Shown: positions 9,675-63,611, counted from the first letter of the stretch. The stretch: DNA of 64,000 nt from an uncultured Gammaproteobacteria bacterium (GCA_964348895.1 CAYGEH010000001.1:384103-448102); one strand, 5' to 3'. Translations and numbers: made by a program. Notes: generated by a model not told the origin, from the letters alone.

Positions 9675-9692
9675 CTACGAATTAAAATAAAA

Positions 9693-10448: not shown

Positions 10449-10486
10449 TTTTAAACTTTTTAATCGTTAATCTTTAATTTTTAATT

Positions 10487-11431: not shown

Positions 11432-11485
11432 TTAACAGATTTCTTATTTTTATGCTTTAAGTCTTTTTTTAAATTTTAAATTGCA

Positions 11486-12466: not shown

Positions 12467-12710
12467 GAATTAAGTCTAAAGATTAGAGATAATTCCAAAA
12501 TAATTTTTAGTCGCCTCAGTTTACTTTTTTAAAGCCTGCCTTTTTTAATTACTGATCATGTCGGACCTAAGGCGGAACCTTTTACTGCTTATTCATTTCT
12601 TGAACAGAAATTAGAATAAAGAAAAGATTTGCCTCTTTTTTAACTAAAAACATCCCACTTAACAAAGATAGAGCGAAGAACACCAAGCTTTTATACTATA
12701 ATAAAGATTA

Positions 12711-15110: not shown

Positions 15111-15220
15111 CAAAGAAAGAATAAAAGCTGAAGGCTAAAAAAACTAAACAAACTTTCCTAATCAAGGAACTTTTAAGCCTTAAAAACGCTGGTTCTAGGC
15201 CAGGCCAGAAAGTAAGATTA

Positions 15221-28498: not shown

Positions 28499-30263
<1,765 letters not shown>

Positions 30264-30358
30264 TAGGAGAAAATAGTCTTTTTGCCTCTCACGGTAAAAG
30301 GACTCTAAACTTTTTCCAAAATCAAAAATATCAACGGATGTTTTGATTTTATTATTTT

Positions 30359-30378
30359 CCTACCACATTCGGAGTGCC
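30359..30378 (+). promoter_or_regulatory. 3' arm of the pre-16S rRNA processing stem
   Basis: Complementary to 28404-28423. Confidence 0.6.
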
Positions 30379-30384
30379 AAAAAA

Positions 30385-30410
30385 CCCCGCCTGACACGGC
30401 GGGGTTTTTT
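30385..30410 (+). terminator. intrinsic terminator between 16S and tRNA-Ile
   Basis: CCCCGCC-TGACAC-GGCGGGG perfect GC-rich 7-bp stem followed by TTTTTT and preceded by AAAAAA. Confidence 0.5.
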
Positions 30411-30544
30411 AATGGGAAAGAAAAAGAAAAAGTAAGCTTGGCTTTGTGATAAGATAGGAAAGATAATTAGCAATTCGAAATTAAAGATTAAAAAAGATAA
30501 AATCACCAACACGTGACAAGGATTGGTGATAAGCAAATCGAATA

Positions 30545-30621
30545 GCACGCGTGGCTCAGGTGGCTAGAGCGCGTCTCTGATAAAGACGAGGTCCCTGGTT
30601 CGAGTCCAGGCGCGTGCACCA
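30545..30621 (+). tRNA. tRNA-Ile (anticodon GAT)
   Basis: Acceptor stem GCACGCG/CGCGTGC. Anticodon loop CTGATAA. T-arm GGTTCGAGTCC. CCA is encoded. Confidence 0.9.
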
Positions 30622-31040
30622 GAATAAATTTTGAGAGAAAAATGTCGACCACCTCGAGGCCTCGTCTTGTTTTGCCTCAAAGTTCTTTTTGGATTTGATC
30701 AGAAATTAAAAATCAAGATATAAAAAAGAGATACAATAAAATCCAGCGACTTCTTTAGTTTTTATTGACAAAGACGACTGCCACCTATATAATTAGTTTT
30801 GCTCTAACAAGAAGAGGTTATATATTTTCGGATGCGACATCAAAAATTTTCAGCTTGTTCCCTTAACTGGGTTCTTAGCTTTTATTGATAAGCAAAACTT
30901 CTTCTTTATTTAGGGCAATTTAAGCTCTTTAATTTAGCCCATCTTGTGTATCACACAGGAATTCCAAATCCTTAAGTGTTTTTTTTGTTTACGAAAGGTT
31001 TATTTTTTTTAAAGTTTCTCGCTTAAATGGCGAGCTTAAG

Positions 31041-31116
31041 GGGGCTATAGCTCAGCTGGGAGAGCGCCACATTTGCAATGTGGAGGTCACCGGTTCAATC
31101 CCGGTTAGCTCCACCA
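31041..31116 (+). tRNA. tRNA-Ala (anticodon TGC)
   Basis: Acceptor stem GGGGCTA/TAGCTCC with the G3-U70 pair. Anticodon loop TTTGCAA. T-arm GGTTCAATCC. CCA is encoded. Confidence 0.9.
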
Positions 31117-31266
31117 GCTCTTGTTAAATGAGCAAGCACTTTGAAAATTCGGTTTGTCATAAAAAAATAGATTAAAAAATCTATTCTTTGTTAGGGTAAG
31201 GATTTTAACTTTTAAAAAAGTTAAAGTTCTGGCTTTTAATTTTAATTTTAAGTAGTCAAAGAATTA

Positions 31267-34827
<3,561 letters not shown>

Positions 34828-34927
34828 AATTTTTTTGACTACGACAAAATAGATATAAAAAAAGCCTAAAAACGAATCCTTATCCTAACAAAGGATAGGT
34901 TTACTTTTTCTTGAAATAAAAAAACTT

Positions 34928-35068
34928 GCTTTGGTTATTGGAGCGTTGTGGTACCACCTGATTTGTTCGCCGTTTAGGCGGACACCATTCCGAACTCAGA
35001 AGTGAAACGCGACAGCGCCGACGATATTGCTTCCGCAAGGAAGTGAGAAAATAGGTCATAGCCAAAGC
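34928..35068 (+). rRNA. rrf: 5S ribosomal RNA (about 141 nt with a roughly 20-nt internal insertion)
   Basis: CCGAACTCAGAAGTGAAACG core. Terminal helix GCTTTGG/CCAAAGC. Confidence 0.8.
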
Positions 35069-46000: not shown

Positions 46001-49000
46001 TTAATCTAGAGTAACCCCTTCCAGTCTTAATCCTTCGAAACGGAAGCCTCCAACACCAAGGTTTACTATAGGAGTGTGACACCAGGCCGAAAAAACACCG
46101 CTTCTCTCAGCTCGAATCCGATATTGATAGCTAAAATTTGCTTCAATACCAGTATCGGTATAGCTGTTACTATTGGAAGGAAGATTAAAAGTGTTTTCGA
46201 CTGGACCCTCTTGACGAGTTCTTACAACCTGATAACCTGTTTCTGTTAGGCTATTATCCTGCCATCTGACAATTAATTGGCCCGGATGCCTGCTATCATC
46301 AATTAAACAGTTGCTTGGCGGTTCGAGAATATCATAATCTAGATTAACTGTTCCTGTTAGTAGAGGAGAAACGCCAGTATCGGTGGTTGAGAAAATAGCT
46401 CGAAATTGAAAATAGCGATTAACGGTGGAGTTAATTGCTGATCCAGAAGGATTATTAAGATAAGACTGATTGGTTCTAAAGTCGTCCACCCAAACGCTTC
46501 GCCCCTCCCAGCCGTTAATCAACCTAAGACTGATTTGGGTAACACCATCAAGATGGGAAGGGAGAGGACCGGATAAATCAAACCATTCTCTCTGCCACTT
46601 AAAAACGGAAGCATTAGGGCTAAAACAGTGAGTGTTTGATCCGCCACAAATACCGCTTCCCTGATTGGGAACACTACCCCCCCAAGAAGCAACGGCAATT
46701 GTTCTAGTACCAGTGTTAACGTTGGTAACTATGCCTTGGAGAACATGAAATACCCCATTATAGTTTTCTCGTAAAATTACAGTTTCGGCAGGAAAAATAT
46801 GATGAATCATGCCGTTGTCGGGTAAAACAAAAACGGTGTCGTTTCTGGCACTGGCTTCAGAGGTGCCCCCGATATCAGAAGCGTTAAGAGAGGAGGCAAA
46901 ATCAATGGTAATGGAATGACTTCTTTTGTCCAGTTCATAAAGTTGTCTAATTTCCTCGGCTGAACGAGCAATATTATCAATTCTCACTTCGTCAATGATT
47001 CCTCTAAAAAAAGAATTAGCAGGACCATCGGGGTTTTTACCAATATAAGTAGTGGTATTATGTACAACAAGCGAACCATTAACGTTACCCGAAGCCTCTT
47101 CTTTACCATTAACATAGGTTCTGCAAGTAACGCCGTTGTTGGTAATAACAATATGGTTCCACTCACCCCACCTAATAACTTGTCTGGTATCAGGACAGCC
47201 GTCGTTGGTGCCTCCACCTGTGCTGGCAAAACGGTGGTGAACAAAAGCAGCGTTGCCGTTAGCATTACCCAGCCATATATGATAGTTTCGCCCTGGTTTG
47301 CCAACAATTCCTTTCCAGGCCTCATTTTGTTGATTGGCATAAATCCAAACAGAAACGGTGTAGCTAGAAATTCTTAAAGAAGCAGAGTCTGGAATAGCGA
47401 TATAATCACTGGTACCATCAAAGGTTCTTCCCTTATCAAATTTACCACCAGTAATTTGGGTTCCAGCGCTTAAACCGTGATTATTTGACAGGGTTTCGTC
47501 TTTGATGTTAATTGGTCTAGTAAGTCGATAAACCATTCTTAGGGCGTTATTTGAGGTATCAGTAATTCTCCAAGCCAAGCCAAAACCGCCCCCCCCTTCA
47601 GCCACTCGCCATAAAACTCTGTTCCAGCCCTTTTCAACTAAAACATCGGTTTGGAATTGATCAATATTTACTCCTTGACAAGTAGTGACAGTCGCCACTA
47701 GAACGCCATTAACCCAAACCTGGGAAGCATCGTCTGACCCCCAGCGGAAACGAATGGTTTGTTCTAGGGGAGAGTAAAGATAAATATGAGAATAAGCATA
47801 GACATTGTTACAGTCACCACCGCAAATAATGGCATCTAAATTAAAATTACCACTAGCGCTAGTGGCGGTTTGCCAGGTTCTGCCCCCGAAGGAGTCGCCA
47901 GGGGAGGGGTATTGATCAAGAAACAAAGCTTGATTACTTGAAGTGTCGCTACAGCCACCAGACGCCCAGCCACCGCTAAGACCGCCAAACAGTTGAGTAG
48001 TAGGATAACCACTGGTATCAGTTAGGCGTTCGCCAACACTAATGCCGACCTCAGAGTTATCGGCAAAGCGCCAGAGGCCAACAGTGTTGCTGTCAGGTTG
48101 ATGATTAGCAAAACTAGACTCACCGATAATGGCTTCAAGGAAAGTTCCGGTCCGATCAGAAGCAATATCAAAAGAAAATTTATTTTTATCGGAAAAATTA
48201 GTGGCAGAAAAGATTCGGGTAAGGCGATGATCTTGGCCAGCTCGATGGGACTCAGCTATAGCCTCTGGGTTTAGGGCGAGAGCCATTATTCTTACCTCGT
48301 CAATTGTGCCAAAAAAACGAGTAATAGCGCCACTGGATCCGATTCCAATAAAGAAATCAGCACTACTATCGGAAAGAGAAGCTGGAATCGTTCCGGTTAT
48401 GGTTCCATTTCTTAGTTCACCATTAATGTAAACATCAAGAGTTTGAGTGCTGGCATTATATATTCCAGCCACATGGGTCCAAACGAATGGTTGGAGAGCA
48501 ATAGAGCTTTGGCGAGTGGCTTGAGTGGCCCCTTGAACGCTAAATTCAACAAATCCGGATCGCACCTGGAAAAAATAAGAGCCTGATGTCCCGCTGAACC
48601 ATTTTGAAACGATAGTCTGGGCTATTGAAGTAATGGAATCATGTCTAACCCAAGCCTCAATTGTTAAACTGCCAGTAACATCCAGGCGGTTAGTTCCACC
48701 ACAGACGGAATCAAGGCAGAAAAGATGGCTACCACCACTAAAGTGTCTGGCCTTGCCAAAAAAACCATTAGTTACTGTTGTTCCTGAAGGAGTAAGATCG
48801 GCGACTGAGGCGCTGCCATCTTTAAGGAAGGCTCCCGCTCCCGAGGTTTCTTCAAAAGACCATAAACCAACAGTATTAGCGTCAGAAGAACGAGCTCCTG
48901 AGGCTAGGTTTAGGCTTCCTGTTCCCTCCATTTTAATATTATTACTGTTTGTTTTAATTAAGGGAGAAAGGAGAGCGTTATTTCCCCACAACCAGTTATG

Positions 49001-51391
49001 GGTATCAGCGTCAAGGTTTAATAGTTGTGCCTCGTTGTTAATTGGTCTCCATCCCTCCCAAGAACCATCATTGGGTGTGTTGGTGGCTCCGGTGCGAGTT
49101 TGAAATTCAATTATTCCAGCTTGATAGTTGCTAATAATTTCTGGTTTCGAAAGAGAACGAGAATAGAGTCGCAGAGAATCTATTGCCCCATTCATATACA
49201 TTGGCCCATAAAGAGTGGTTAGTCCGATTTGGGCTGGAGCAGAAGTGCTGGTAACCATGTTTCCCCCTGTGCCAGAGTATTGACCGTTAACTTCAACACC
49301 ATTAATATAAATTTCCATGTCTAGTGGACCCCTAACTACGGCGGCAACATGAGTCCATTGACCAATGGGAACAGATAGCCTTCCCCCGCCATAAGAGCGC
49401 CTGCTGGTGGGCCCAGGTCCTGTTCCGTCACCGTAGCTTATCATTAGATGGTTGGTTGGACCAAGGTGTAAATTAGTACCAAAATAGCTTCCACTATGAT
49501 TGTCGCTGTTAAAAATAGACGACCAGGATTCGCCAACAGTGCCGGCATTAGGCCGACCATTTAAAAAAATCCAACCTTCAATAGAAAAAGGTAACGTTAG
49601 GGAATTAAATCTTTCCCCCAAATTGACAAAGTCATTAGCCCCATCAAACATTAGAGCTCCAGCTCCCCAACGACGATTGTTGCTGGTCCAGCCAGAACCA
49701 GCCAAAAAGTCTCGGCCGCTGGTGTTGGCAAAGTTGGTTAAAGTACCATGATTACCCCCGCCAGAAGAATCAGAGGTGGTAGTCCCAGAGGCTTCATTAA
49801 ATCTCCAGTCGGCCAAAAGACCAGTAGAAGAAAAAGGGGTTTCACCATCGCCGGTTCGAGTGCCCAATTGGCTCCAAGACAAGGAATTTAAACCAACCAC
49901 AAATTCGCCAAGATCTATTACTTCAGAAGTATAAATTCCAGAAGGCCTTCTTTGGGCGTTATGCCTAATTTCTCGACTGGTTCGAGCAACATTGGAAATG
50001 CGAACTTCATCGATATGACCGTTAAAGTTTCTGCCGCCAGACCAAGAACCAAGCCAAACAGACTCAGTGGTGTTTCTAAGATAATTTCTTTGATTAACGC
50101 TTTCCAAGATGCCATTGACATAAACTTTAATATTAGTTCCATCATAAACACAAGCAACATGATACCACTCAAAAAGACCCTTACTGGCGAGACCAAAATC
50201 AATAGTAGTACTAGATCCATTCCCAAGAACACAGCCAAATCGGCCATCTTGGTGCCAAGTCATTTGATAACCTCGACTATTAAATTCTCTTTGAACGATG
50301 GCGTCTCCCCAAGAGGCGTCTGTTGAAAGACTGTTTGGCCAAACCCAAGCTTCAAGGGTGAATGTTCTTTCTGGGGCTAGAGCCAAAGAAGTTGAAATGA
50401 CAACGTGGTCGTTTGGTCCAGTAAAGTTGCCAGAAAAAGAGCTGACCTTGGCTTGGTCAGTGAAGGTGGCTCCACCTTGAGCTGTACCTCCATGACCTAG
50501 ACCAGAGCTATCCTGCCAATCATTATTCATGCGCCACAGACCGACAGTACTAGAGTCAACCGCCATTTCTTGGTATTTTATTCCTTGAGTGTTGTTATCA
50601 GGGAGGGGAAGGTCTCCTTCGTTGCCAGTTCGATTTCTAGTTCCAGACCAAAAAGCCCCACCCTGATTATAAACAATGGTTGGATCAATAAAAACAGGGT
50701 AGGCTCGACTGGGATCAGATAACCATTCCCAAGAGGGAATAAGTTTAATTAAATATTCTTTTTCTTTTTTTGAGTTATTATTGTTTTCTTTGTTTTCATT
50801 AGGAGTGATGGTTAGAATTACATCTTCGCTTCTTTGGCCATTGGCGTCAACCATAAATGGTTTTTCAAAATGAAATCGATATTCTTCAGTTTGTGGGTCA
50901 ACAAAAACAAACAACGAAGAAGGTTGATCTTTAAGAACAGCGTTTTCTAGGTCGGCAGTAAAGGTAAAAACGGCCTCTTGGTTTGGAAAAAGGCTTACCA
51001 GAGAGGAAAAGTCATCAACAACGACATCTTCTTTTAGGCCGTTATCAATGATCCGATAGACAATACTAATTCCTGGCCAGACATTTTGATAAATAAGCTC
51101 TTGATCGTTAGATTCTATTGTCTTAGCCTCTTTCTCTAAAGAAAAGTTTATCCAAGAGTCTCCTTGTCTAAACTTGGCATTTGGTTTATTTTTTCTTTCT
51201 CGGTTTCCAAGGTAAATTTGGAAGTTTTTCTCCTCTTCGGCTGATTGGTATAAGAAAAGGCTGTTGGAGGGGGCTTGAAAAAGCTTAGGTTGATCTGCTT
51301 TAGTGGGATCAGCCCTTTTTATTAGTATTAAAGAAACAATTAAGACTAATAAGAAAATAGCGATAGAAAATATTATTGATTTTTTGGTCAT
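46001..51391 (-). CDS. giant secreted/surface protein (1796 aa) with multiple LamG/concanavalin-A-like lectin domains and a C-terminal FN3-like domain
   Basis: N-terminal signal/anchor. Recurrent ...NFNGHIDEVRISN.ARS.EEI... LamG-type motifs (at least 6 copies). The gene starts 3 nt after the upstream giant gene. Confidence 0.6.
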   Translation of the reverse strand: MTKKSIIFSIAIFLLVLIVSLILIKRADPTKADQPKLFQAPSNSLFLYQSAEEEKNFQIYLGNRERKNKPNAKFRQGDSWINFSLEKEAKTIESNDQELIYQNVWPGISIVYRIIDNGLKEDVVVDDFSSLVSLFPNQEAVFTFTADLENAVLKDQPSSLFVFVDPQTEEYRFHFEKPFMVDANGQRSEDVILTITPNENKENNNNSKKEKEYLIKLIPSWEWLSDPSRAYPVFIDPTIVYNQGGAFWSGTRNRTGNEGDLPLPDNNTQGIKYQEMAVDSSTVGLWRMNNDWQDSSGLGHGGTAQGGATFTDQAKVSSFSGNFTGPNDHVVISTSLALAPERTFTLEAWVWPNSLSTDASWGDAIVQREFNSRGYQMTWHQDGRFGCVLGNGSSTTIDFGLASKGLFEWYHVACVYDGTNIKVYVNGILESVNQRNYLRNTTESVWLGSWSGGRNFNGHIDEVRISNVARTSREIRHNAQRRPSGIYTSEVIDLGEFVVGLNSLSWSQLGTRTGDGETPFSSTGLLADWRFNEASGTTTSDSSGGGNHGTLTNFANTSGRDFLAGSGWTSNNRRWGAGALMFDGANDFVNLGERFNSLTLPFSIEGWIFLNGRPNAGTVGESWSSIFNSDNHSGSYFGTNLHLGPTNHLMISYGDGTGPGPTSRRSYGGGRLSVPIGQWTHVAAVVRGPLDMEIYINGVEVNGQYSGTGGNMVTSTSAPAQIGLTTLYGPMYMNGAIDSLRLYSRSLSKPEIISNYQAGIIEFQTRTGATNTPNDGSWEGWRPINNEAQLLNLDADTHNWLWGNNALLSPLIKTNSNNIKMEGTGSLNLASGARSSDANTVGLWSFEETSGAGAFLKDGSASVADLTPSGTTVTNGFFGKARHFSGGSHLFCLDSVCGGTNRLDVTGSLTIEAWVRHDSITSIAQTIVSKWFSGTSGSYFFQVRSGFVEFSVQGATQATRQSSIALQPFVWTHVAGIYNASTQTLDVYINGELRNGTITGTIPASLSDSSADFFIGIGSSGAITRFFGTIDEVRIMALALNPEAIAESHRAGQDHRLTRIFSATNFSDKNKFSFDIASDRTGTFLEAIIGESSFANHQPDSNTVGLWRFADNSEVGISVGERLTDTSGYPTTQLFGGLSGGWASGGCSDTSSNQALFLDQYPSPGDSFGGRTWQTATSASGNFNLDAIICGGDCNNVYAYSHIYLYSPLEQTIRFRWGSDDASQVWVNGVLVATVTTCQGVNIDQFQTDVLVEKGWNRVLWRVAEGGGGFGLAWRITDTSNNALRMVYRLTRPINIKDETLSNNHGLSAGTQITGGKFDKGRTFDGTSDYIAIPDSASLRISSYTVSVWIYANQQNEAWKGIVGKPGRNYHIWLGNANGNAAFVHHRFASTGGGTNDGCPDTRQVIRWGEWNHIVITNNGVTCRTYVNGKEEASGNVNGSLVVHNTTTYIGKNPDGPANSFFRGIIDEVRIDNIARSAEEIRQLYELDKRSHSITIDFASSLNASDIGGTSEASARNDTVFVLPDNGMIHHIFPAETVILRENYNGVFHVLQGIVTNVNTGTRTIAVASWGGSVPNQGSGICGGSNTHCFSPNASVFKWQREWFDLSGPLPSHLDGVTQISLRLINGWEGRSVWVDDFRTNQSYLNNPSGSAINSTVNRYFQFRAIFSTTDTGVSPLLTGTVNLDYDILEPPSNCLIDDSRHPGQLIVRWQDNSLTETGYQVVRTRQEGPVENTFNLPSNSNSYTDTGIEANFSYQYRIRAERSGVFSAWCHTPIVNLGVGGFRFEGLRLEGVTLD

Positions 51392-51393
51392 TT

Positions 51394-54300
51394 TTAGTTG
51401 TTACCGATAATCCACCAGTTAAAGGAAATTCTTTCGTTAATAGCTCGGCTAACGCCGACGACAAAATATCTTCTTGTTTTAGTTATTTTTTCTCCTGTTT
51501 GTGGGTCAACCTCTTCAATTGTCTCAACCACTTTATTTTTGAGGTAAAGAACTTGGTTTTGAGTAGTTGAGGTTGGTGTTAAAAAGATCATGGCGTCACT
51601 AGTTAGATTTTCATTATATATAACTAAGTCTGTTTGACCAACTGGCAAGACAGCGCTTCCAGCGGAAGCATTAGTAACAATTCCTGGGGCCCAAACACCA
51701 ATGTTATTAAAGTTCTCTGAGGCGGCAACGACCATTCCTGGTCTTTCTTTTTCGGTAGAAATAGCAAGGCTGTCAACAGCAACTTGTCCAGCAAATTGGG
51801 CCGAGCCGTCAGCGTTAATCTTGGCAACAACCTCTTGATTAATCCCCTTGACAAGCAACTCTCCAAACCCTGAGCTTGGATCAAGTTCGGAATTAATAGA
51901 GAGGGGGCTCTCGCCTTGGACAGCACCGCCTTCGCTGTCTTGGTCTGTGCTATTGGCTAAATTAAAGACTAGGTCTTGGCCTCCGTGTGGTCTAATATTT
52001 CCAGCAATTAAGTCTCCGCCGACAGTTAAATGATGAGCAATAAAAACATTGCCGCCAATATCAATAGCGATTTTGCCGCTTAAGATGTCCAGACCTCCTA
52101 AGCCTTCTCTTTGTAGATATAATGTTCCATTCAAATTACTAACACCACCATCGGTTAAAGATAAGCTATTGATGGCTAGGCTATTTGTTGTCACTTGCCC
52201 GAAAACGGTTAAGTCGCCATGATGAATTAGTTTTTCAGTCAAGGAGGCAACATAACCTTTATTTATTTGCTCTTTTTCTTGAGAAGAAAAAAGAACTTCG
52301 TCTTCAACTGGCAAAACACTGCTGGTATTTAAATTAAGCCAACCCTCCACTTCAGCAAGTAATGTTTTAATATCTACTTCTTCATTTTGAGTTTTTTCTT
52401 CGTGAACTTGAACATTATTTTCATTGCTCTGTGTGTTTTCCTCGTTACCCTGAGATTGAGTCAACATCTCTTCTCTTACTATCGCCCTAATGTTATCTAG
52501 GCTAATGTTTTTAGTTAATAGCTCTCCAAAACCACCCTCTCTGGCCACCACTCGGTCAACATAGAGCGTGCCAGAAATAGTGGCATCCTGAGCCACTTCT
52601 AGATTTTGGGTTTTAATGCTTTCAGCTTCCAATTGGCCAAGATTGGCGTTGTTGGCCAATAAGTCCCCAAAGTTAGCCTTAAGAGAGTCAATTTCTGTTG
52701 CTGTTGTTGTTCCGGCCACTTCTAAATCTCCAAATAGAGTGGTTTGTTTAGTTTCGGTATCAAACTCCGCTGTTGGTTCATCGGTGGAATTAACAATCGA
52801 GATCTTTGAGTTTTGAGTTGTAGTTTTGATTGTTGCATTTTGATTGTCGAATTGTATTGTCCCTGTTTCTATCACTGGAGAAATAATTTTTTCTTGAGTA
52901 TTAATATTTGTGGCAGTAATATTATCGACAATTAAGCTTGTTGTTTGAATTAGGCCGGCTCTTAGCTCAGTGGTTATTGTTTCCGCAAAGGCACCAATTC
53001 TATTAATGGTTTCTCCAGTTGAATTTCTAACTAGCCTAAAATTAAATGGGTCAAGATTTGTTTGTTCTGCTGAAGAAGAAGGTTGACCATCATTAACTAA
53101 ACGTAAATCACCAGCACTGGCAAGATAAGCATCTGGGTCATACCAAGAAAGATTAATAAAAATTAATATTTTTCCAACTGCTTCTGGATCAGGATTATTA
53201 TATGTTTCTAGGGCTTTTCCGATAATTTGTCCAGCTCGAGTTGCCTTCATGCCAACACCAGGAATATCAGAAGAAGTAATGGGGTCTCCAGGTTTAATTG
53301 GACCGTTCTTAGTAGTAACTTTAACAGGAACACGACCAACAAGAGCGACTCTAGTGTTACTATTTTCAGTTCCGCCCATAACCTGGAATGGAGAAGTTGA
53401 AACAACGCCGACCAGTTTATTGTCATAGGGGCTAGTTGACTTATCAAGCAACCTATTGGTTGAAACAGAAAGAATGTCTCCTGGTTCAGTTGTAGTTATA
53501 GACTGATAATTTTCAGCCAAGTCAGAACCAGTAATCATCGGATCGCTTGTAGCTTTGGCCTCAAGCTCTGATTGAAGCTGAGCTTGTCGAGTGGCACAAT
53601 CAACACAATATTCAAGTTTGCCGAAATAGACTTCAGGGTTCGTTAACAATCTCATTCCTCTGCTTTTAGGATAAACCTTAAGTTCGTCGCTCTCAGCAAT
53701 AGCAGTAGGCTTAGCGTATCTGGTAATCTTATAGTTATTGCGGATATAGTCAACATCAGTTAGTTGTCCCAGCGTGGTCAGCCCATCATCAAAAACAGTT
53801 ACTTGGACTGGAATCCACCCTGAGTCCTGTGAAAAAGAAAGAGGAAGAATTGTCAAGTCCTGAATTTCTGAAGCCCAAACACCTCGAATTAAATCAGTCA
53901 CAGGATCATAAAGAACAAAAATTTCTGGATCTCTTGAAGAAGTGATAAACCTCCACCTGAGCCCAACGTCACGAGCTCCACACCAGGCAGCGTCTGAGCG
54001 ATTACACAGCACTCTAAAGCGAGCAATTGTATCAGCGGAATCAAGACTACGAGGTTGGAGCAAGGTGTTTACATCTGGGTCGGCAGTAGTTCTAATATTA
54101 GGGAAAAAAGTAGCGTCGTTAAGACCAACGTCCATGCTAACTGGACCAGCGGTAGGCATATCAAGAACGGTGGCCCCAGTGCCATATAGCATGTCTCCGT
54201 GATCAATACAGCTGGAGCACTCAAAATTTGTGGCGGTGACGGTGCCAACCACCTGGAGGGCCGTGCTTGGTGATGGTGTCCCAATGCCGACATTACCGGC

Positions 54301-57300
54301 GGCAGTAATCCTCATTCTTTCAGTCGTCGCACCAATAGTGGAATCGATTCTAATCCTTAGACCATCACCCACATCGGTTGTTCTAATATCAATGAAGCCA
54401 GCTGGAATTGTTCCGTTCACAAGTCCCCCGAACAACCTCATTCCCGTTGCCCCAATGCTTGGGTCGCCGCCGAACATTAAATTCCCGTCTATATTATTAT
54501 TTGCATTAGGCAACAAAATATTTCCTGTGCCTAAGGCCAATCTTTGTCCCGGACTTGTTGTTCCAATCCCAACATTGCCTACCCCTGTTATTCTCATTAC
54601 TTCAGCTGCGGCTCTGTCAGCTGTGCCAGTAGCGCCGCCACCAGCAGTTTGAAAGATAATGCTTGAAGTTCCTAAGCCAGTAGCAAGACCCGAAGCAAGG
54701 GTTAAATCTCCGCCTGCTAAATTAGTGCCTCCAACAAAAGCACCACCAGCGTTAACCGTCAAAGCATTACCCACGCCACTTGCGGTTCTTCTTTCTAAGC
54801 CAATAGTTCTGGCTGTTTCACCCCCAAACCCTAAGACTCTAGTGGGAGAGATTGTTCCAATCCCGACATTACCAGCAAGAAGAAGATTGTTAATATTAAT
54901 TAAGTTGTCTGCGGCGAAGGAAATATTATTAGAGGCAGAGTTAATGGTGATATCACCGGAAGCGTTAGAAATTGTTGATGAAGCTCCGCCGATATCAAGC
55001 CTAGCTTGAGGATTTGTTGTCCCTATTCCCACATTGCCTCCAGGTGCAAAAAAAACTCTATCTATCCCTCCAGGCAAGAACCTTATGGCAGAGTCGAGTG
55101 TTCCTAGGACCATTTCTCTACCAGTGGTTTCGACATATAAACCAGGCATTGACCAAGCAGCGCCAACTCTCAAAACACCTGATCCAGTTTCAGCATTAAT
55201 AACACGCATTTGGGAGCCCTCTATTCTTGTTTCCCCCAAAACGTGCAACCTTGCCCCCGGTGTTGCTGTTCCAATACCAAAATTTCCGGTTGCGTCAATT
55301 CTTACTCTTTCCGTGTTCCCAGTGAACATTGCTAAGTTGTTTAAAGCTGGGCGATCAAAACCGACGCCGGGATCTATAATTGATAAGCTTCTTGTTGGTC
55401 CTGATGTTCCGATGCCGACGTTGCCAGCAGTTGTCAGTGAAATTGCAGCATTGGCAGGATCAAGAAAGAAATTGCTGTTAGCGCTGTCAATAAACGTTGC
55501 TGAAATCATTGATGTGAAAGCGTGAATTGTGCCAGAAGAGGTGGCGTTCCCTCGAATATCTAATGTCATCGCTGGGGTGGTGGTCCCTATGCCAACATTA
55601 CCCCCTGGTGTTTCAAAAATAGTGGAATTAATAATCGTGTCTGCGTCTAGCATTTTGGGAATATAGTTGGCTGAAGTACCAGAAAAGTCGACAAGAGAGG
55701 ACCCCCAAAAACGAGAATCAATTGTTCTTGTTTGTAAAAGACCAGATGAGTGAGTGACCACAGTGTTGGTCGAGCCGGCACCAAGAGTTTGGATTCTTGC
55801 TTCTCCGGCAACATCTAGTCTTACCCCCGGTGTTGCTGTCCCTATCCCGACATTACCCAGTTCATTAACCATTAAAGCTTCAACTCCTCGAGCAGTTACT
55901 CGTAAAGGTCTTAAGTTAGAACCAGTCGCCGTCGCCAGATTAAGAAGAGCCCCAGTCCCAGTGTTGTTGGCAGTATCAGCCAAAGTAAACAGATTAACTC
56001 CTGCTCCAGTTGCTGCTCCCCAAGTAAAGGCAGTAGTAAAAGCACCATGAGCAAGAGAGAGGTTACCATCAGGGGCAGTTAAAGCATTCCATCTTACGGT
56101 TACTGGAGACCAAACTGGAGCTGCTCCAGCTCCTTGAGAGGCTAAGAATTGACCACTTGTTCCAGCTGCACCTCCAGGCATTAAGGCTCCGCTAAACTGA
56201 AGATTACCAGAGACATCAAGTCGTTGAGCGGGAGAAAGAGTTCCTATGCCGACGCTATTACCGGCTGGATTAAAAACTAACGGTTCCCCACCCCAAGTTT
56301 GAATAGCCTTGTAAGTGCCGAAATCTCCTAAGGTAATACCATCATTAAGAGAGGGTCCAACAAGTAGAGCATAATTTGCCGGGTCGCTATTTGCTAACCC
56401 AGAAGAATCTCGAATAACACTTAGTCTTTGTGCCGGTGTCGTCGTCCCAATCCCTACATTGCCAGCAGTAGTAATGGAGATTCCCCCAGTATCACCAATA
56501 GTCCGAGTTGCTCCTCCCAAACCAAGGTTAGCTCCCAGGGTTGGAGTTCCCCCTAGGGTGTAAGTGCCTCCGACTACTCCAGAGAGAGTTGGAGTAGCAA
56601 TACTTGGTGAAGTCCCAAAGACTAGGAGTCCAGAACCAGTCTCATCAGCAACCGAGAGAGCCAGGTTAGCTGAACTAATAGTAGTTGCCAGAGTCCCCCC
56701 AGTAGTAGTGGTGACTAGTCGATCAGCGGCCAGACCAGAGAAGGTGATTGTACCTGAGGAGGCAATTCCGGTTGCTGCAGCAATAGCCCCAGCACTATTA
56801 ACTTGGAACTGAGAAGCCGAACCAACAGAGAAAAGGGAAGCGGGGGTGGTGGTGTTAATGCCGACGTTACCGGCTCCACTAATAGTCATAGCTTGACGAG
56901 TAGTTATTCCGTCAGAAACCCAGAAGTTAAGCTGAGATTGTGTTCCGCTCGCTACATAGTCAGATCTAATAAGAGCCCTGTTGGCGTCATTTTGAGCGTG
57001 TCTAAACTCTAACCCTGGAAAGGACACAAGATCAGGAGTATCCATAAGCATTCTTGCCTCAAAGCCTGATCTTAATATCGTTAGAGCACGGGTTGGTGTT
57101 GCTGTCCCTATCCCGACATTACCCAGTTCATTAACCATTAAAGCTTCAACTCCTCGAGCAGTTACTCGTAAAGGTCTTAAGTTAGAACCAGTCGCCGTCG
57201 CCAGATTAAGAAGAGCCCCAGTCCCAGTGTTGTTGGCAGTATCAGCCAAAGTAAACAGATTAACTCCTGCTCCAGTTGCTGCTCCCCAAGTAAAGGCAGT

Positions 57301-60300
57301 AGTAAAAGCACCGTGAGAAAGAGAGAGGTTGCCATCAGGGGCAATTAAGGCATTCCATCTTAAGGACGAAGCAGGAATAGTTGAAGTCCAAGCTGGAGCA
57401 ACCCCAGCTCCTTGAGAGACAAGAAATTGACCACTACCTCCAGCTGCACCACCAGGCATTAAGGCTCCGCTAAACTGAAGGTTACCAGAGACATCAAGTC
57501 GTTGAGCGGGGGAGAACGTGCCGATGCCGACGTTATCATTAATAATTCTCATCGTCATCCACTCGACTCTATTTCCAAAATTAAGAGCACCCCCCACATT
57601 TCGGTAGTTAATATCACCAGCGGCAGCATTATTAAACCACTGACCCCCGCTTTGTGAGAATCCAATCCAAGCATTAACGCCCGCCCCCCCTGAACCTATT
57701 CCAGAAGGTCCCGTAGTGGGCATATCTATCCAGCTTCCACTTGCTAAGGGAAAGTCTCTTATTTCTAGTCCCCCATCGAATATCGCTCTTCCTCCAGCTA
57801 CTTGTAATCTTGCCCCCGGTGTCGTCGTCCCTATCCCCACATTACCAGCAGTAGTAATAGATAGCCCCCCAGTATCACCAATAGTCCGAGTTGCTCCTCC
57901 AAGACCAAGGTTAGCTCCCAGGGTGGGAGTTCCCCCTAGGGTGTAAGTGCCTCCGACTACTCCAGAGAGAGTTGGAGTAGCAATACTTGGTGAAGTCCCA
58001 AAGACTAGGAGTCCAGAACCAGTCTCATCAGCAACCGAGAGAGCCAGGTTAGCTGAACTAATAGTAGTTGCCAGAGTCCCCCCAGTAGTAGTGGTGACTA
58101 GTCGATCAGCGGCCAGACCAGAGAAGGTGATTGTACCTGAGGAGGCAATTCCGGTTAGGTTAACTAAGGCTCCAGCGTTAGTTAAACGCTCAGTCCCAGC
58201 TGTTCTTAGGCCACCATCAATTAAGTTAAGAGAGAAAGAACCAGTTCCTAGATTATCTAAACCCAAGACATCAGCAGTAGTAGTATTTCTAGCAATAGCA
58301 ACAGGACTAGTTCCAGAAAGAGTCAGAGGAGTAGCTCCAGTTAGAGTTAAACCAGCAAAGGTGGGAGCGGCAGCGGTATGAATATCCTGAGGTAGGTTAA
58401 GAGTCCAAGTCCGACTAGCAGATAAGTCTTGAACGCCAGTGGGGGAGACAGTGACCCGATTGGCTGTTCCTACTATTTCTAAAGTCCGACTAGTCGGGAC
58501 CATGGTTCCAGCAACTAAGGTAGTATCTCCATCAGCTAAAGTCAGAGTCCGATTAGCAGTAAGAGTAGTTGGAGTTAGACTAACAGCAAAGCTACCCGTA
58601 CCCCCAGCTCGACCTTGAAGAACAACGGCATCTTGAGTGGCTGCAGTCTCTACTCTTAAAGCTCCTCCTTGTAGTTGGAGTCGGGCCAGGGTTGGTGTCG
58701 CTGTCCCAATGCCGACGTTACCCAGCTCTGTTATTGTCATTCTATCCACTAGGTTATTTAATCCAGACCCAGAAGTTCCCGCAGGAGCGGTTTGAAAAAT
58801 AACAGCTCCTCCAGGTCCCGTTCCGGTCCCTCTACCTCCTGCTATTTGTAGACCACCGCCTGGAATGTTAGAGCCCAAGCCTCCAGTTCCCTGTAGTGTG
58901 TAAGAAGTGGGGGAAGTGGCCGTTACCCCTTGTCCAAAATAAATATTGTTAATAGGAAAAGAAGATGAGCCAGCCACAAAAAGATTGGCAGCAGTGGCGT
59001 TAGCGGAACGACCAATGGCGATAGAAGCGGTGTTTCCCGAAGCTCCTTCTCCAAGAGTAACTCCGCTAGCACCACTAATAGCAGATCTTCCAATCGTTAC
59101 ACTATTTCCTTGTAGTCCAGAAACGCCTTGGCCAATAGCAACAGCGTTATGGCTGGCCGAAGCACCATGACCAATTACTAGACTATCATTTCCTATATTA
59201 GAAGCACTATGGCCTATGGCATAAGATCTTATGGCAGTAGCAGAAGCCCCAGTGCCGATAGCAAAAGATTGATCTGACCCTGTAGTAGAACCTAATCCAA
59301 TAGCAAGAGAACTTGTACCACTTGCGTTTGCATTTCTGCCGATAGCTAATGAGCTGTTACCAGCAGCAATTGCTCCAAAGCCGAATCTTTCGCTGTTCAC
59401 ACCAGATCCTGGGCTGGTGATATTGCCAACAACATGTAGGGCACTAAGTGGACTCGCTGTCCCTATCCCGACATTACCCAGTTCATTAACCATTAAAGCT
59501 TCAACTCCTCGAGCAGTTACTCGTAAAGGTCTTAAGTTAGAACCAGTCGCCGTCGCCAGATTAAGAAGAGCCCCAGTCCCAGTGTTGTTGGCAGTATCAG
59601 CCAAAGTAAACAGATTAACTCCTGCTCCAGTTGCTGCTCCCCAAGTAAAGGCAGTAGTAAAAGCACCATGAGCAAGAGAGAGGTTACCATCAGGGGCAGT
59701 TAAAGCATTCCATCTTAGTGAAGAAGCAGGAATAGTTGAAGTCCAAACTGGAGCTGCTCCAGCTCCTTGAGAGGCTAAGAATTGACCACTTGTTCCAGCT
59801 GCACCTCCAGGCATTAAGGCTCCGCTAAACTGAAGATTACCAGAGACATCAAGTCGTTGAGCGGGAGCGGGAACACCGATTCCTACATTGCCAGTAAAAA
59901 AGCCAGAGCTGTTAACACTAAGAGTACCAGCAATATTCGTGTTGCCAGCGTGGTCAACGGCAAATTTAGTGGTCAAAGGAGAACCAGAGGCAAGCCTTAG
60001 CAGATTATAGCCGGTGCCGCCAGTTCCAGCCTCAGCATAGATTAGCGATCCAGTGGTAATGTTGCTATTTTGGACAGTAAAAGAGTTATCGGTAGTAGTG
60101 CCAGAAAAAATCATTACCCGCCCTCTAGTATCAGTATCAGGCTGAATTAAAATATCGCCACCACCGACTCCACCAGTAGATTGAATGGTAATTGCTTCGC
60201 CTCTTAGACCAAAAGTGCCAGAGGTAGACTCAATGGATGGAGAAGGGGAGGCCAAAACAAGATTACCACTGGCATTAATTACAGGAATTGTGTTGGCTGT

Positions 60301-61194
60301 AGCTGAAGGGGTTGCGGGATAGCCTTGTAAAAAACGGGCATTATAAGCATAGCCAACGGTAGCAATTTGTTGGCGAGGCGTCATTTCGGCGTCGGTTCCA
60401 ATGGTAATTCCCAACCAAAGATTAACGTTTTCAGCAAAGATGTTTGGATTTATGGGATTAACACTCCCCATCATGGTGGTGAAAATGCCGTCCTGATTAG
60501 TGCTGATATTTTTATTTTCCGTCCAAAGAGGGGTGCCACCTGTGCTAGCGCTATAAATTTGAAAAGTTGCCGAAACAGTAGCGTGAATAGGGGTGCCGAC
60601 ACTATTAGTAAGTCGGCCCTGAAAAGAAATTAGATTTGGTGGTAGAGTAGGAAGAACAGCCAAAGAAGGCTCTTCGGGTGGTTGGGCAATAAATTGAGCG
60701 TAAATTCCCCAACCCAAAGCACCAATTAAAAGAGTGATTATTAAAAAGCTAAAATACTTTGTGATTGGCGACGATTTGATAGGGTGGAGAGATGCTTCTT
60801 CGAAAGAAGGCTGAGAGAATTTAGTTAGCCAATTGATCTTTAAGGCCTCTTCTTGCTGACCATACTCTCTTTTAATCCAACTTGCAAACTTATTTAAAGA
60901 AATCGCTTTTCTTCTTATAGTGGAAGGAGAAACACCCCTCTTTTTTAATTGTTCAAGATATTGACTGATCTTTTGTTCAGTAATTAATGGGCGATGAGAT
61001 TTCTGTTCTTTTGTTGGCCCTGAAACACAATCGAATGAGGTTTTAGTTTTAGAAGAGTAATGTTTACCTTGTGAGGAACGACCAAAAAAAGAAGGGCTTT
61101 TTATAGAACGATAAAAACCCAAAAAATGAAAAAAAGATAATTTTTTTTCTTTGGCAGATTGAATATGACGAGTCATTTCCCCTTTGACTATCAA
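51394..61194 (-). CDS. giant (3266 aa) Gly/Thr/Ala-rich repeat surface protein with an N-terminal cytoplasmic integrase-core-binding (SAM-like) domain and a TM helix
   Basis: Residues about 70-110 (ITEQKISQYLEQL...STIRRKAISLNKFASWI) fit the Phage_int_SAM/core-binding pattern. A TM helix follows (FSFLIITLLIGALGWGIY). More than 20 beta-helix-like modules carry a (L/A)GNVGIGT(A/T)TP motif, as in tail-fibre-like proteins. Confidence 0.6.
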   Translation of the reverse strand: MIVKGEMTRHIQSAKEKKLSFFHFLGFYRSIKSPSFFGRSSQGKHYSSKTKTSFDCVSGPTKEQKSHRPLITEQKISQYLEQLKKRGVSPSTIRRKAISLNKFASWIKREYGQQEEALKINWLTKFSQPSFEEASLHPIKSSPITKYFSFLIITLLIGALGWGIYAQFIAQPPEEPSLAVLPTLPPNLISFQGRLTNSVGTPIHATVSATFQIYSASTGGTPLWTENKNISTNQDGIFTTMMGSVNPINPNIFAENVNLWLGITIGTDAEMTPRQQIATVGYAYNARFLQGYPATPSATANTIPVINASGNLVLASPSPSIESTSGTFGLRGEAITIQSTGGVGGGDILIQPDTDTRGRVMIFSGTTTDNSFTVQNSNITTGSLIYAEAGTGGTGYNLLRLASGSPLTTKFAVDHAGNTNIAGTLSVNSSGFFTGNVGIGVPAPAQRLDVSGNLQFSGALMPGGAAGTSGQFLASQGAGAAPVWTSTIPASSLRWNALTAPDGNLSLAHGAFTTAFTWGAATGAGVNLFTLADTANNTGTGALLNLATATGSNLRPLRVTARGVEALMVNELGNVGIGTASPLSALHVVGNITSPGSGVNSERFGFGAIAAGNSSLAIGRNANASGTSSLAIGLGSTTGSDQSFAIGTGASATAIRSYAIGHSASNIGNDSLVIGHGASASHNAVAIGQGVSGLQGNSVTIGRSAISGASGVTLGEGASGNTASIAIGRSANATAANLFVAGSSSFPINNIYFGQGVTATSPTSYTLQGTGGLGSNIPGGGLQIAGGRGTGTGPGGAVIFQTAPAGTSGSGLNNLVDRMTITELGNVGIGTATPTLARLQLQGGALRVETAATQDAVVLQGRAGGTGSFAVSLTPTTLTANRTLTLADGDTTLVAGTMVPTSRTLEIVGTANRVTVSPTGVQDLSASRTWTLNLPQDIHTAAAPTFAGLTLTGATPLTLSGTSPVAIARNTTTADVLGLDNLGTGSFSLNLIDGGLRTAGTERLTNAGALVNLTGIASSGTITFSGLAADRLVTTTTGGTLATTISSANLALSVADETGSGLLVFGTSPSIATPTLSGVVGGTYTLGGTPTLGANLGLGGATRTIGDTGGLSITTAGNVGIGTTTPGARLQVAGGRAIFDGGLEIRDFPLASGSWIDMPTTGPSGIGSGGAGVNAWIGFSQSGGQWFNNAAAGDINYRNVGGALNFGNRVEWMTMRIINDNVGIGTFSPAQRLDVSGNLQFSGALMPGGAAGGSGQFLVSQGAGVAPAWTSTIPASSLRWNALIAPDGNLSLSHGAFTTAFTWGAATGAGVNLFTLADTANNTGTGALLNLATATGSNLRPLRVTARGVEALMVNELGNVGIGTATPTRALTILRSGFEARMLMDTPDLVSFPGLEFRHAQNDANRALIRSDYVASGTQSQLNFWVSDGITTRQAMTISGAGNVGINTTTPASLFSVGSASQFQVNSAGAIAAATGIASSGTITFSGLAADRLVTTTTGGTLATTISSANLALSVADETGSGLLVFGTSPSIATPTLSGVVGGTYTLGGTPTLGANLGLGGATRTIGDTGGISITTAGNVGIGTTTPAQRLSVIRDSSGLANSDPANYALLVGPSLNDGITLGDFGTYKAIQTWGGEPLVFNPAGNSVGIGTLSPAQRLDVSGNLQFSGALMPGGAAGTSGQFLASQGAGAAPVWSPVTVRWNALTAPDGNLSLAHGAFTTAFTWGAATGAGVNLFTLADTANNTGTGALLNLATATGSNLRPLRVTARGVEALMVNELGNVGIGTATPGVRLDVAGEARIQTLGAGSTNTVVTHSSGLLQTRTIDSRFWGSSLVDFSGTSANYIPKMLDADTIINSTIFETPGGNVGIGTTTPAMTLDIRGNATSSGTIHAFTSMISATFIDSANSNFFLDPANAAISLTTAGNVGIGTSGPTRSLSIIDPGVGFDRPALNNLAMFTGNTERVRIDATGNFGIGTATPGARLHVLGETRIEGSQMRVINAETGSGVLRVGAAWSMPGLYVETTGREMVLGTLDSAIRFLPGGIDRVFFAPGGNVGIGTTNPQARLDIGGASSTISNASGDITINSASNNISFAADNLININNLLLAGNVGIGTISPTRVLGFGGETARTIGLERRTASGVGNALTVNAGGAFVGGTNLAGGDLTLASGLATGLGTSSIIFQTAGGGATGTADRAAAEVMRITGVGNVGIGTTSPGQRLALGTGNILLPNANNNIDGNLMFGGDPSIGATGMRLFGGLVNGTIPAGFIDIRTTDVGDGLRIRIDSTIGATTERMRITAAGNVGIGTPSPSTALQVVGTVTATNFECSSCIDHGDMLYGTGATVLDMPTAGPVSMDVGLNDATFFPNIRTTADPDVNTLLQPRSLDSADTIARFRVLCNRSDAAWCGARDVGLRWRFITSSRDPEIFVLYDPVTDLIRGVWASEIQDLTILPLSFSQDSGWIPVQVTVFDDGLTTLGQLTDVDYIRNNYKITRYAKPTAIAESDELKVYPKSRGMRLLTNPEVYFGKLEYCVDCATRQAQLQSELEAKATSDPMITGSDLAENYQSITTTEPGDILSVSTNRLLDKSTSPYDNKLVGVVSTSPFQVMGGTENSNTRVALVGRVPVKVTTKNGPIKPGDPITSSDIPGVGMKATRAGQIIGKALETYNNPDPEAVGKILIFINLSWYDPDAYLASAGDLRLVNDGQPSSSAEQTNLDPFNFRLVRNSTGETINRIGAFAETITTELRAGLIQTTSLIVDNITATNINTQEKIISPVIETGTIQFDNQNATIKTTTQNSKISIVNSTDEPTAEFDTETKQTTLFGDLEVAGTTTATEIDSLKANFGDLLANNANLGQLEAESIKTQNLEVAQDATISGTLYVDRVVAREGGFGELLTKNISLDNIRAIVREEMLTQSQGNEENTQSNENNVQVHEEKTQNEEVDIKTLLAEVEGWLNLNTSSVLPVEDEVLFSSQEKEQINKGYVASLTEKLIHHGDLTVFGQVTTNSLAINSLSLTDGGVSNLNGTLYLQREGLGGLDILSGKIAIDIGGNVFIAHHLTVGGDLIAGNIRPHGGQDLVFNLANSTDQDSEGGAVQGESPLSINSELDPSSGFGELLVKGINQEVVAKINADGSAQFAGQVAVDSLAISTEKERPGMVVAASENFNNIGVWAPGIVTNASAGSAVLPVGQTDLVIYNENLTSDAMIFLTPTSTTQNQVLYLKNKVVETIEEVDPQTGEKITKTRRYFVVGVSRAINERISFNWWIIGNN
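55836..56262. repeat. intragenic direct repeat family A, copy 1 (about 430 bp)
   Basis: More than 95% identical to 57104-57530 and 59447-59873. Confidence 0.8.
56440..56775. repeat. intragenic direct repeat family B, copy 1 (about 340 bp)
   Basis: About 98% identical to 57818-58155 (GGVVSGVGTYTLGGTPTLGANLG... module). Confidence 0.8.
57104..57530. repeat. intragenic direct repeat family A, copy 2
   Basis: Near-identical to copies 1 and 3. Confidence 0.8.
57818..58155. repeat. intragenic direct repeat family B, copy 2
   Basis: Near-identical to 56440-56775. Confidence 0.8.
59447..59873. repeat. intragenic direct repeat family A, copy 3
   Basis: Near-identical to copies 1 and 2. Confidence 0.8.
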
Positions 61195-61404: not shown

Positions 61405-61941
61405 CTATGATTTTGTTTTAGAAGAAAGCTCTTCGTTTTGTTTAAAATGATGAAAAGAAGAATAATCATCCTTAAGGCTGCAAAAAGACAGAAATCCTCG
61501 AACATCTGACAGGTAGTTTCGAATCGTAGAAGAACTTTTTCCCTCAACTTTTAAAGATTTGGCAAATTGATCTAAAACTTGCCAGGCGTCATTAGTTTCT
61601 TTTTTTTCGGGAATATTGGCTATTTTTTTACCACGGTTATTTGGGATCCAACCCTGGTTAACAAAGAAGTCGGATAATTTTCTTAAAGCAGAGAGTCGAC
61701 GGTTAATGGTTGCAACAGAAACATAATTATTTTTTAAAAAAACACTGTAATGGTTTAAAACAACTGGTGATATCTTTTGAGCTATTATGATAGATTCAGC
61801 TGAATCTAGTTCTGGATAAAAGCTTGCCAACCAACCCAGAAAGTGACGAATATCAATAAGATAATTTCTGGCTGTATTTTCAGCTATTTTTTGTGTTTTC
61901 AAATATAAGGAAAACGGCCGGAGGATTTTCTTTGAGTCCAT
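61405..61941 (-). CDS. small protein (178 aa) made of two tandem phage-integrase N-terminal SAM-like (core-binding) domains, with no catalytic domain
   Basis: Two copies of the S..T...Y...[IV]..FL.W/F pattern (ENTARNYLIDIRHFLGWL and SSSTIRNYLSDVRGFLSF). Lies immediately upstream of, and co-oriented with, the giant gene. Confidence 0.5.
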   Translation of the reverse strand: MDSKKILRPFSLYLKTQKIAENTARNYLIDIRHFLGWLASFYPELDSAESIIIAQKISPVVLNHYSVFLKNNYVSVATINRRLSALRKLSDFFVNQGWIPNNRGKKIANIPEKKETNDAWQVLDQFAKSLKVEGKSSSTIRNYLSDVRGFLSFCSLKDDYSSFHHFKQNEELSSKTKS

Positions 61942-62960
61942 AAGTTTATAAAAATAACCACAAGAAAGAAAAAGAAAAAATTAACAAAATTGCTAGAAAA
62001 TCAAGGATTTGAGAAAATGTTTCTTTTTTCATGCGGTAATCAAAAATTAGCTTTAGATTATCAAGATTATCAATTATTACAATAAGACTACACTATTAGA
62101 AAAAGCCTGTCAAGTAATACTTATCCTTATCGAAAGAAGGTTTGATATATTATGATTGAGACAAAAAAGCACAAAAACAACCACTTTTTAATTTTTAACT
62201 AAAAATAAACAAGACACAATTAACCGCAATAACTAAAAATATATTTTCACGTGGATTTCATTTCAAAATATAAGCATAATTTAATATCTATTAACATATC
62301 AAAATAATATAAAGATTGAATACTTTGCCTTTTTTTAATTTGCGGTAATTATTTATCCTTTTTTCTCTTTAATTAATTAATTTTTAAGAAAAATTATTAA
62401 TTCTCTTAATATTTTTAACCTAAAGAAAGTTAAAATCCCTATTTTTCCGATTTTTTTATTTATTTCTTTTTCAAGAGGGGAAAGAGAAATAAAATTACCG
62501 CCAAAAACAACAAATAAGGCTTTTTTCTTATGAGGCGCCGTTATTTTTCACCCTTTTAGCTATTTTCACGGGCCCTAGTTAGCTGGAGTCGGGCAAAATA
62601 AACAAACAATGCTATTTTTAGCAGTTAAATGTTTTATTTGACAGAAAATATTAACACAAACATTAGTTCAAAATATTGGAATAAAATATAATTTATTTAT
62701 TTTTTTATTGACTCAAGCTGGCCACCACTGTTCTTTGAGATAAATTTTTCTCTTTTAAAGAAAGAAAGAAAATTGTGGTGTGAAAAGGTTTATAGTATAT
62801 AACTAGAAGATTAAAAAAAGACAATAAAGATAAAAGAGGGGCCTACAACAACAAGCAAAGAAAAGAACACCATAGAAAATTAAGAAATATAGTGTGCTTA
62901 AAGAAGAGTGGTCTTGGAGTTGAAAAGAATAAGGGGGGCCTTTCTCAAATTAAACTTTGA

Positions 62961-63389: not shown

Positions 63390-63611
63390 AAAACAAGTGC
63401 CTTAGTGGTAGCATAAATTAAAAAACATAGTTTGTCAATAAGAGACAACGGCTAATGTTTTGCAAGAAAAAAAGACTAGAAAAGAAGAATATTCTTGTGT
63501 TGGTAACATCTTAAAAACAAATAAAAAGTGGCCTTTTTTAATGCGGTAATTAAGCGGAAATGAACAAATGTTGTTTTGTGCTAAAAGTTCATTTGTTTCT
63601 TGACTTTTGGT

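Follow-up and report, generated by a model that had tools for sequence, protein, structure and literature searches.

A giant, putatively membrane-anchored fibre gene of a Patescibacteria-like genome carries dispersed, near-identical module repeats with signs of recent intragenic recombination

Phage tail fibres are well known to evolve mosaically by module exchange, and surface proteins such as the alpha C protein of group B Streptococcus and the staphylococcal Bap/Sdr proteins change their length by intragenic recombination. In this work we have analysed a giant fibre gene, an open reading frame (ORF) of 3266 amino acids (aa) at 51394..61194 (-) in a 64-kb stretch of DNA (CAYGEH010000001.1:384103-448102, deposited under an uncultured Gammaproteobacteria bacterium and called the window below), which holds three near-identical copies of one module, A, and two of another, B. 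Our reading, to which we give a probability of roughly three in four, is that the gene encodes a membrane-anchored fibre of an ultra-small bacterium, a member of the Patescibacteria, and that its copies of A and B, already diverged, have recently overwritten one another by intragenic recombination. How does this protein compare with the fibres that have been described? The MAT fibres of Bdellovibrio bacteriovorus, in particular their non-S74 subgroup (Caulton et al. 2024, PMC10769870), resemble it in being chimeric, built of modules punctuated by capping loops and variable in their distal parts; they too have relatives with or without a C-terminal S74 chaperone, and belong to a cell living on other bacteria. 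The capping-loop motif on the trimeric beta-helices of the MAT fibres was given as V-G-G/N-pi-x-x-P-x-x-x-L and is common to S74-type phage fibres (PMC10769870). The motif of the window fibre (V-G-I-G-T-x-x-P) is one residue longer than this printed consensus. Matches to MAT fibre structures were found in the PDB (8ond with an E-value of 2.8e-5, 8oml with 4.6e-3 and 8ojn with 5.7e-3), each over 45-65 residues at the motifs only. Unlike the MAT fibres, the window protein matches the Bdello_MAT_N model (NF053851) weakly, at aa 186-244 and with 23.5 bits against a cut-off of 60; it is also three times longer, appears to be anchored by a transmembrane (TM) segment behind a SAM-like domain, seems to come from Patescibacteria and is known from sequence.

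The phage tail fibres and tailspikes that have a beta-helical shaft and carry an intramolecular S74 chaperone, such as K1F endosialidase and T5 pb1, share the capping-loop motif and probably the type of shaft with the window fibre, and relatives of the latter (e.g. P0136 and P0137) are annotated as 'tail fiber domain-containing protein' and contain Peptidase_S74 (PF13884). No match to Peptidase_S74 was obtained with the whole fibre protein or with its segments. In contrast to tail fibre genes, the window gene lies in a chromosomal housekeeping context and not in a prophage, with no phage structural or integration genes among its identified neighbours. The trimeric autotransporter adhesins (YadA, BpaC) are similar in the logic of a long, modular, trimeric adhesin and in a YadA-head segment, found here at aa 587-738. 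They differ in their anchor, which in the window fibre would be N-terminal and consist of a single TM segment; the C-terminal 960 aa gave no Pfam match to the C-terminal YadA membrane-anchor beta-barrel. With the alpha C protein and Bap/Sdr the window gene shares near-identical, in-frame DNA repeats, a substrate for in-frame deletion or expansion, but its repeats are dispersed and interleaved and not tandem.

By self-BLASTN, run on the gene and on the whole window, we detected exactly two repeat families. Module A occurs three times, as A1 (aa 444-580, 59455..59865), A2 (aa 1229-1365, 57100..57510) and A3 (aa 1655-1787, 55834..56232), and module B twice, as B1 (aa 1014-1126, 57817..58155) and B2 (aa 1475-1587, 56434..56772), all on the (-) strand; the same search found neither a further A or B copy nor any comparable long repeat elsewhere in the 64 kb. 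An initial annotation of this DNA had described three-copy and two-copy repeats inside the gene, with copy numbers that were right and coordinates that were right to within 10-30 nucleotides (nt). Its identities were somewhat too generous. Of the A pairs, which were said to exceed 95%, A3/A1 does so (55835-56234 vs 59456-59867; 95.4% over 412 nt with one 12-nt indel), but A2/A1 (57101-57510 vs 59456-59865; 94.9% over 410 nt) and A3/A2 (55829-56258 vs 57095-57536; 90.3% over 442 nt) do not, and the B pair, put at about 98%, measures 97.1% (B2/B1, 56433-56773 vs 57816-58156; 341 nt). The E-values of the repeat pairs range from 0 to 1e-163 and chance is therefore excluded. All copies are in frame within the single ORF and their spacings (A1-A2 2355 nt, A2-A3 1266/1278 nt, B1-B2 1383 nt) are each a multiple of 3. 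Along the protein the copies follow the order A1 ... B1-x-A2-y-B2-z-A3, in which the intervening segments x, y and z are mutually unrelated; the arrangement is therefore neither a simple tandem array nor a haplotype or allelic duplication. A simple tandem duplication of a B-x-A block was also considered and was rejected, since x (aa 1127-1228) and z (aa 1588-1654) share the motif only. Tandem Repeats Finder reported nothing in the window, nor in L007, a homologue with a tandem array described below, because the periods are longer than 500 nt.

The identity between the copies is not uniform but mosaic. The three A copies do not differ over their final ~210 nt, nor do the two B copies over their first ~230 nt. 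A perfect tract of 262 nt joins A3 to A1 (55835..56096 = 59456-59717), the A2 tract at 57101-57312 matches A1 perfectly over 212 nt and A3 over 218 nt, and a perfect tract of 231 nt joins B2 to B1 (56543..56773 = 57926-58156), all on the (-) strand. When mismatches were spread evenly in simulations, a perfect run like that of A1/A2 appeared in 0 of 100,000, and the probability of the B run was 1.1e-4. Outside the tract, the first 66 codons of A1 and A2 show a synonymous divergence (dS) of 0.30 and a nonsynonymous divergence (dN) of 0.058, and the last 38 codons of B1 and B2 a dS of 0.27 and a dN of 0.026; with a dN/dS of ~0.1-0.2 these diverged stretches are under purifying selection. In A2 the transition is abrupt, with 66 diverged codons at the 5' end followed by 69 that are identical to A1 and a final codon with one synonymous change, which is the only difference within the tracts. 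A1 and A3 differ only by a loop-sized 12-nt indel patch (TSTIPASSL vs SPVTV) and one base.

Could purifying selection be the sole cause of this identity? We rejected this possibility, because the synonymous sites of the tracts are identical too and selection at the level of the protein therefore cannot explain them. The simplest reading is that the modules are older paralogues and that gene conversion or re-duplication has recently overwritten parts of them. The initial annotation had also proposed recent intragenic duplication or gene conversion, and the perfect tracts of 212-262 nt beside segments with a dS of 0.27-0.30 agree with this proposal. In the relatives, A-type modules number 2-3 per protein and share 41-76% mutual identity, as compared with 91-96% here.

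The placement of the repeats follows a recurrent motif. GNVGIGTxxPxxxL (pattern [GND][NSD]xG[IV][GN][TV]xxPxxxL) occurs 17 times across the modular shaft (aa 435-2300; 54277..59892 (-)) and its copies delimit modules of 46-292 aa; 17 motif-bounded modules were counted, somewhat fewer than the approximately 20 first proposed. It had also been claimed that each repeat copy is a complete module. This is correct for A, a module of 134-138 aa that starts right after one motif and runs through the next, but not for B, which is the C-terminal 113 aa of two modules (292 and 136 aa) with unrelated front parts. The motif marks A at its two edges and B at its 3' edge. The remaining module pairs share only the ~20-aa motif, with no more than 47% aa identity elsewhere and no detectable DNA similarity beyond 55-65 nt, and the contrast with the repeats is as sharp as the initial annotation had stated. 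Module A is widespread: at E<=1e-3 it was found in 4021 representative proteins, of which many are giant and contain several copies.

We propose that the gene product is a giant, membrane-anchored and probably trimeric fibre of a Shapirobacteria-like cell of the Patescibacteria, which may be exposed on the surface and would follow the plan of phage tail fibres and MAT fibres: a conserved base and then heterogeneous modules joined by the capping-loop motif. The three copies of A and the two of B would already have been present as diverged paralogues. RecA-type homologous recombination inside the gene would then have left difference-free tracts beside older sequence with a dS of ~0.3, whether it proceeded by gene conversion or by unequal exchange and subsequent re-duplication. 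The position of the edges on the motif may mean that exchanges in the motif register are those that survive, or that the motif DNA helps to initiate exchange. Because the copies share a reading frame, further exchange between them could lead to the in-frame loss or gain of 422-1211 aa, and both the length of the fibre and its module content would change.

Is such a gene unusual among its homologues? The base of the fibre (aa ~54-473; 59776..61035 (-)) is 62-72% identical in aa to L018-L022 and 61% to L007. It is the sole part common to the closest orthologues, L018-L022, in which all similarity ends after aa ~473 and the shafts are completely different. The family thus keeps the base and rapidly replaces the shaft. 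In L007, an orthologue in a Patescibacteria metagenome-assembled genome (MAG) on a contig of 597,657 bp, positions 8966-16672 hold 4.86 tandem units of 1584 nt (528 aa); each unit begins at a GNVGIGT motif and the first four are without any difference. Intragenic repeats with 90-100% identity are also present in L032 (560 nt), L063 (543 nt), L080 and L053, and repeats with 80-89% in several further members of the family. In a set of 85 proteins of at least 1500 aa, which is biased toward multi-copy proteins and includes the fibre itself and one neighbouring protein from outside the family, 35 hold internal repeats with at least 90% aa identity. Homogenisation of repeats is ordinary for this fibre family, and the window gene is not a new kind of element. 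The comparison shows a fibre family of the candidate phyla radiation (CPR) that conserves its base, swaps its shaft quickly and copies motif-bounded units repeatedly. A literature search on the motif string and on giant fibres of CPR bacteria returned nothing specific.

Adhesins mediate the attachment of cultivated Patescibacteria to their host cells (PMC10633639). If fibres of the present type also mediate attachment to the host, the turnover of their shafts would bear on host range, and recombination between the repeats might have a role in varying the binding of hosts or partners. Perhaps the capping-loop motif is a universal in-frame joint, with which Patescibacteria shuffle, amplify and homogenise the shaft modules of a membrane-anchored organelle resembling a tail fibre, made up of the conserved base, the hypervariable shaft, a lectin-rich partner encoded downstream and an integrase-type SAM-like domain in the cytoplasm. 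We offer this idea tentatively and consider it rather doubtful. If it were true, episymbionts would possess a phage-like, fast-evolving device for recognition of the host, and the repeats in the window would be a snapshot of it.

Several points weigh against the reading that we prefer. The AlphaFold monomer of module A, built with 22 sequences, is poor (pLDDT 68, pTM 0.42), and the interpretation of the shaft as a trimeric beta-helix is therefore drawn from weak sequence matches together with the motif. At its 5' edge, B is not bounded by a motif. Copy number and order come from a single assembly, three A and two B copies leave four segment orders that are compatible with the short-read graph, and consensus polishing of the repeat could exaggerate the perfect tracts. 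Finally, a length variant of the fibre gene was not found in any dataset that we compared. The copy-number or antigenic variation expected in the initial annotation is plausible and has indirect support, as the copies are in frame, the shafts of the orthologues differ and one orthologue carries the 4.9-copy array.

These points lead to the strongest of the alternatives, namely that the repeats are real in kind and that their number, order or perfect tracts were made by the assembler or the polisher. The full-length product is encoded on one NCBI contig only (691,268 bp; P0298, an identical product) and is a singleton, while at least five contigs, drawn from NCBI, ENA and Logan assemblies, carry the neighbouring genes, and every short-read assembly fails to cross the repeat region. 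No close relative of the middle of the gene was found in GTDB species genomes or JGI metagenomes, and when the unique segment between A1 and B1 was searched against proteins, no near-identical fragment was returned. As the initial annotation had anticipated, the repeats are a source of trouble in assembly. Four independent short-read contigs, from ERZ27247794, ERR3094288, ERZ27247803 and ERR3094290 (L001 to L004), are 99.8-100% identical to the window and stop inside the gene, at its outer A copies. In A3, L001 begins at 56096, the final base of the 262-nt A3/A1 tract, and L002 (k=31) at 55858, a position 30 bases inside the copy. L003 (k=141) breaks off at 59577 after covering 141 bases of the 262-nt tract, and L004 (k=31) at 59817, where its last copy-specific base in A1 has been passed by 30 bases. 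Three of these ends thus lie k or k-1 bases within the outer A copies, which is how a de Bruijn graph behaves at a true multi-copy repeat. Branch points between the copies exist in other datasets. This speaks against an artefact, since contig ends that coincide independently with identity boundaries require at least two copies with those branch points; the copy-specific differences and the four unrelated intervening segments oppose a duplication of haplotypes, the ORF remains open for 9.8 kb, and like repeats are present in many relatives. We regard an artefact as unlikely. For the largest surface protein of this genome, the exact length and module order nevertheless hinge on the path that a single assembly took through five repeats. 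The problem is a common one: of 59 homologous loci from metagenomes, 50 reach the end of their contig inside the gene (11 of 19 among contigs of at least 20 kb), and fibre genes are systematically truncated in short-read metagenomes. As a separate observation on the same contigs, L003 and L004 both start exactly at 62298, in AT-rich non-coding DNA, which could be explained by a further repeat boundary, by structural variation or by a drop in coverage.

Might the copies instead have been acquired separately from outside, from a paralogous fibre gene or from the allele of another strain? In locus L006, the fibre ORF has segments of 561 and 717 nt in common, at 90-93% identity, with a region ~4 kb downstream of the gene. 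The contigs described above differ from the window at five single-nucleotide polymorphisms (SNPs) in the ~19 kb compared, and these cluster at A copies, one at 55906 in A3 and four at 59847-59890, at the 5' edge of A1, with none elsewhere. The A1-edge variants, four within 44 nt, match neither A2 nor A3, and the clustering may reflect extra recombination or strain variation. An outside donor is opposed by the lack of any other A or B copy in the window and by the 212-nt tract common to all three A copies, which is most simply explained by intragenic exchange. It appears to us slightly less probable even than an artefact of assembly. Programmed variation, by cassettes of the pilE/pilS or vlsE type or by a diversity-generating retroelement acting on the modules, would suit a surface fibre with a hypervariable shaft and with integrase-type SAM-like domains encoded at and upstream of the gene, but is very improbable, because no reverse transcriptase or integrase catalytic domain was found among the scanned ORFs, which cover part of the window, no silent donor cassettes were found in the 64 kb, the diverged parts are under purifying selection, and the substitutions between copies have no adenine bias (T>C 6, C>T 5, A>T 4, others), so that the retroelement in particular was rejected.

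We return to the reading that we prefer and to the layout of the protein. The ORF of 3266 aa was confirmed; it is uninterrupted and is counted from a TTG at 61194. The true start is likely the ATG at 61176, which is preceded by an AAAGGGG ribosome-binding site and would give a product of 3260 aa. The N-terminal region is basic (27 K+R vs 11 D+E) and is presumably cytoplasmic. It contains, at aa 71-110 (60865..60984 (-)), an integrase-type, core-binding-like SAM-like domain, which matched the Phage_int_SAM_1 profile with 22.9 bits against a cut-off of 22.3 when the isolated segment was scanned. A hydrophobic segment at aa ~147-170 (60685..60756 (-)), the sole strongly hydrophobic stretch of the protein in a Kyte-Doolittle scan, may be a signal-anchor TM helix. 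The YadA-head-like repeat segment (aa ~587-738; 58981..59436 (-)) matched the YadA_head profile (PF05658) with 35.3 bits against a cut-off of 25 when aa 573-830 were scanned, and in the PDB sequence search it matched the heads of BpaC, YadA and Hep_Hag. The C-terminal ~960 aa (aa 2300-3266; 51397..54276 (-)) gave no match in Pfam, PHROG or PDB sequence searches, although some of this part is conserved in homologues, with 27% identity to L010, a homologue from Patescibacteria, over aa 2557-3263 and 44% to L011 and L012, from MAGs labelled Gammaproteobacteria, over aa 2558-2695. This part may be a conserved, as yet undescribed tip region. The only PHROG match is to a family without known function.

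Upstream of the fibre gene an ORF of 178 aa (61405..61941 (-)) encodes two integrase-type SAM-like domains and no catalytic domain. Domains of the type found in this ORF are fused to the fibre in L010, P0161, P0304 and P0004, and the N-terminal SAM-like domain of the fibre is also present in the homologues L006, L007, L010, P0004, P0161 and P0304. It is puzzling, and recurrent in Patescibacteria, that a surface fibre carries a domain of the DNA-binding type on its cytoplasmic side. Downstream, only 2 nt separate the fibre gene stop from a gene for a protein of 1796 aa (46001..51391 (-)) with four Laminin_G_3 (ConA-like lectin) domains and one fn3 domain, which partially matches the TafC fimbrial family. 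The two genes are probably in the same operon and the lectin-domain protein would be a co-transcribed partner of the fibre.

The other neighbours are an rRNA operon and genes for S1, RadA, Rho, a LysM-M23 peptidase, a TPR protein, PBP1a and LytR. This context appears chromosomal and CPR-like, and Rho clusters at 90% identity with proteins of Shapirobacteria. The rRNA operon (28510-35067) has a 16S gene of 1754 nt, against a model of 1533 positions, and a 23S gene of 3548 nt, against 2925; these genes therefore carry insertions, as often reported for CPR bacteria. Three ORFs of at least 90 aa overlap the region of the operon. The 16-nt sequence TTTTT.AT(G)CGGTAAT occurs three times (62025-62040, 62334-62349 and 63535-63550, all (+)), where 0.12 occurrences are expected, and is confined to AT-rich intergenic DNA upstream of surface-protein genes on the minus strand; these genes may have it in common as a regulatory element or a terminator. 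Lastly, two convergent paralogues of a class A penicillin-binding protein with transglycosylase and transpeptidase domains, at 12711-15110 (+) and 15221-17515 (-), have 70% DNA identity over ~770 nt and form an inverted repeat.

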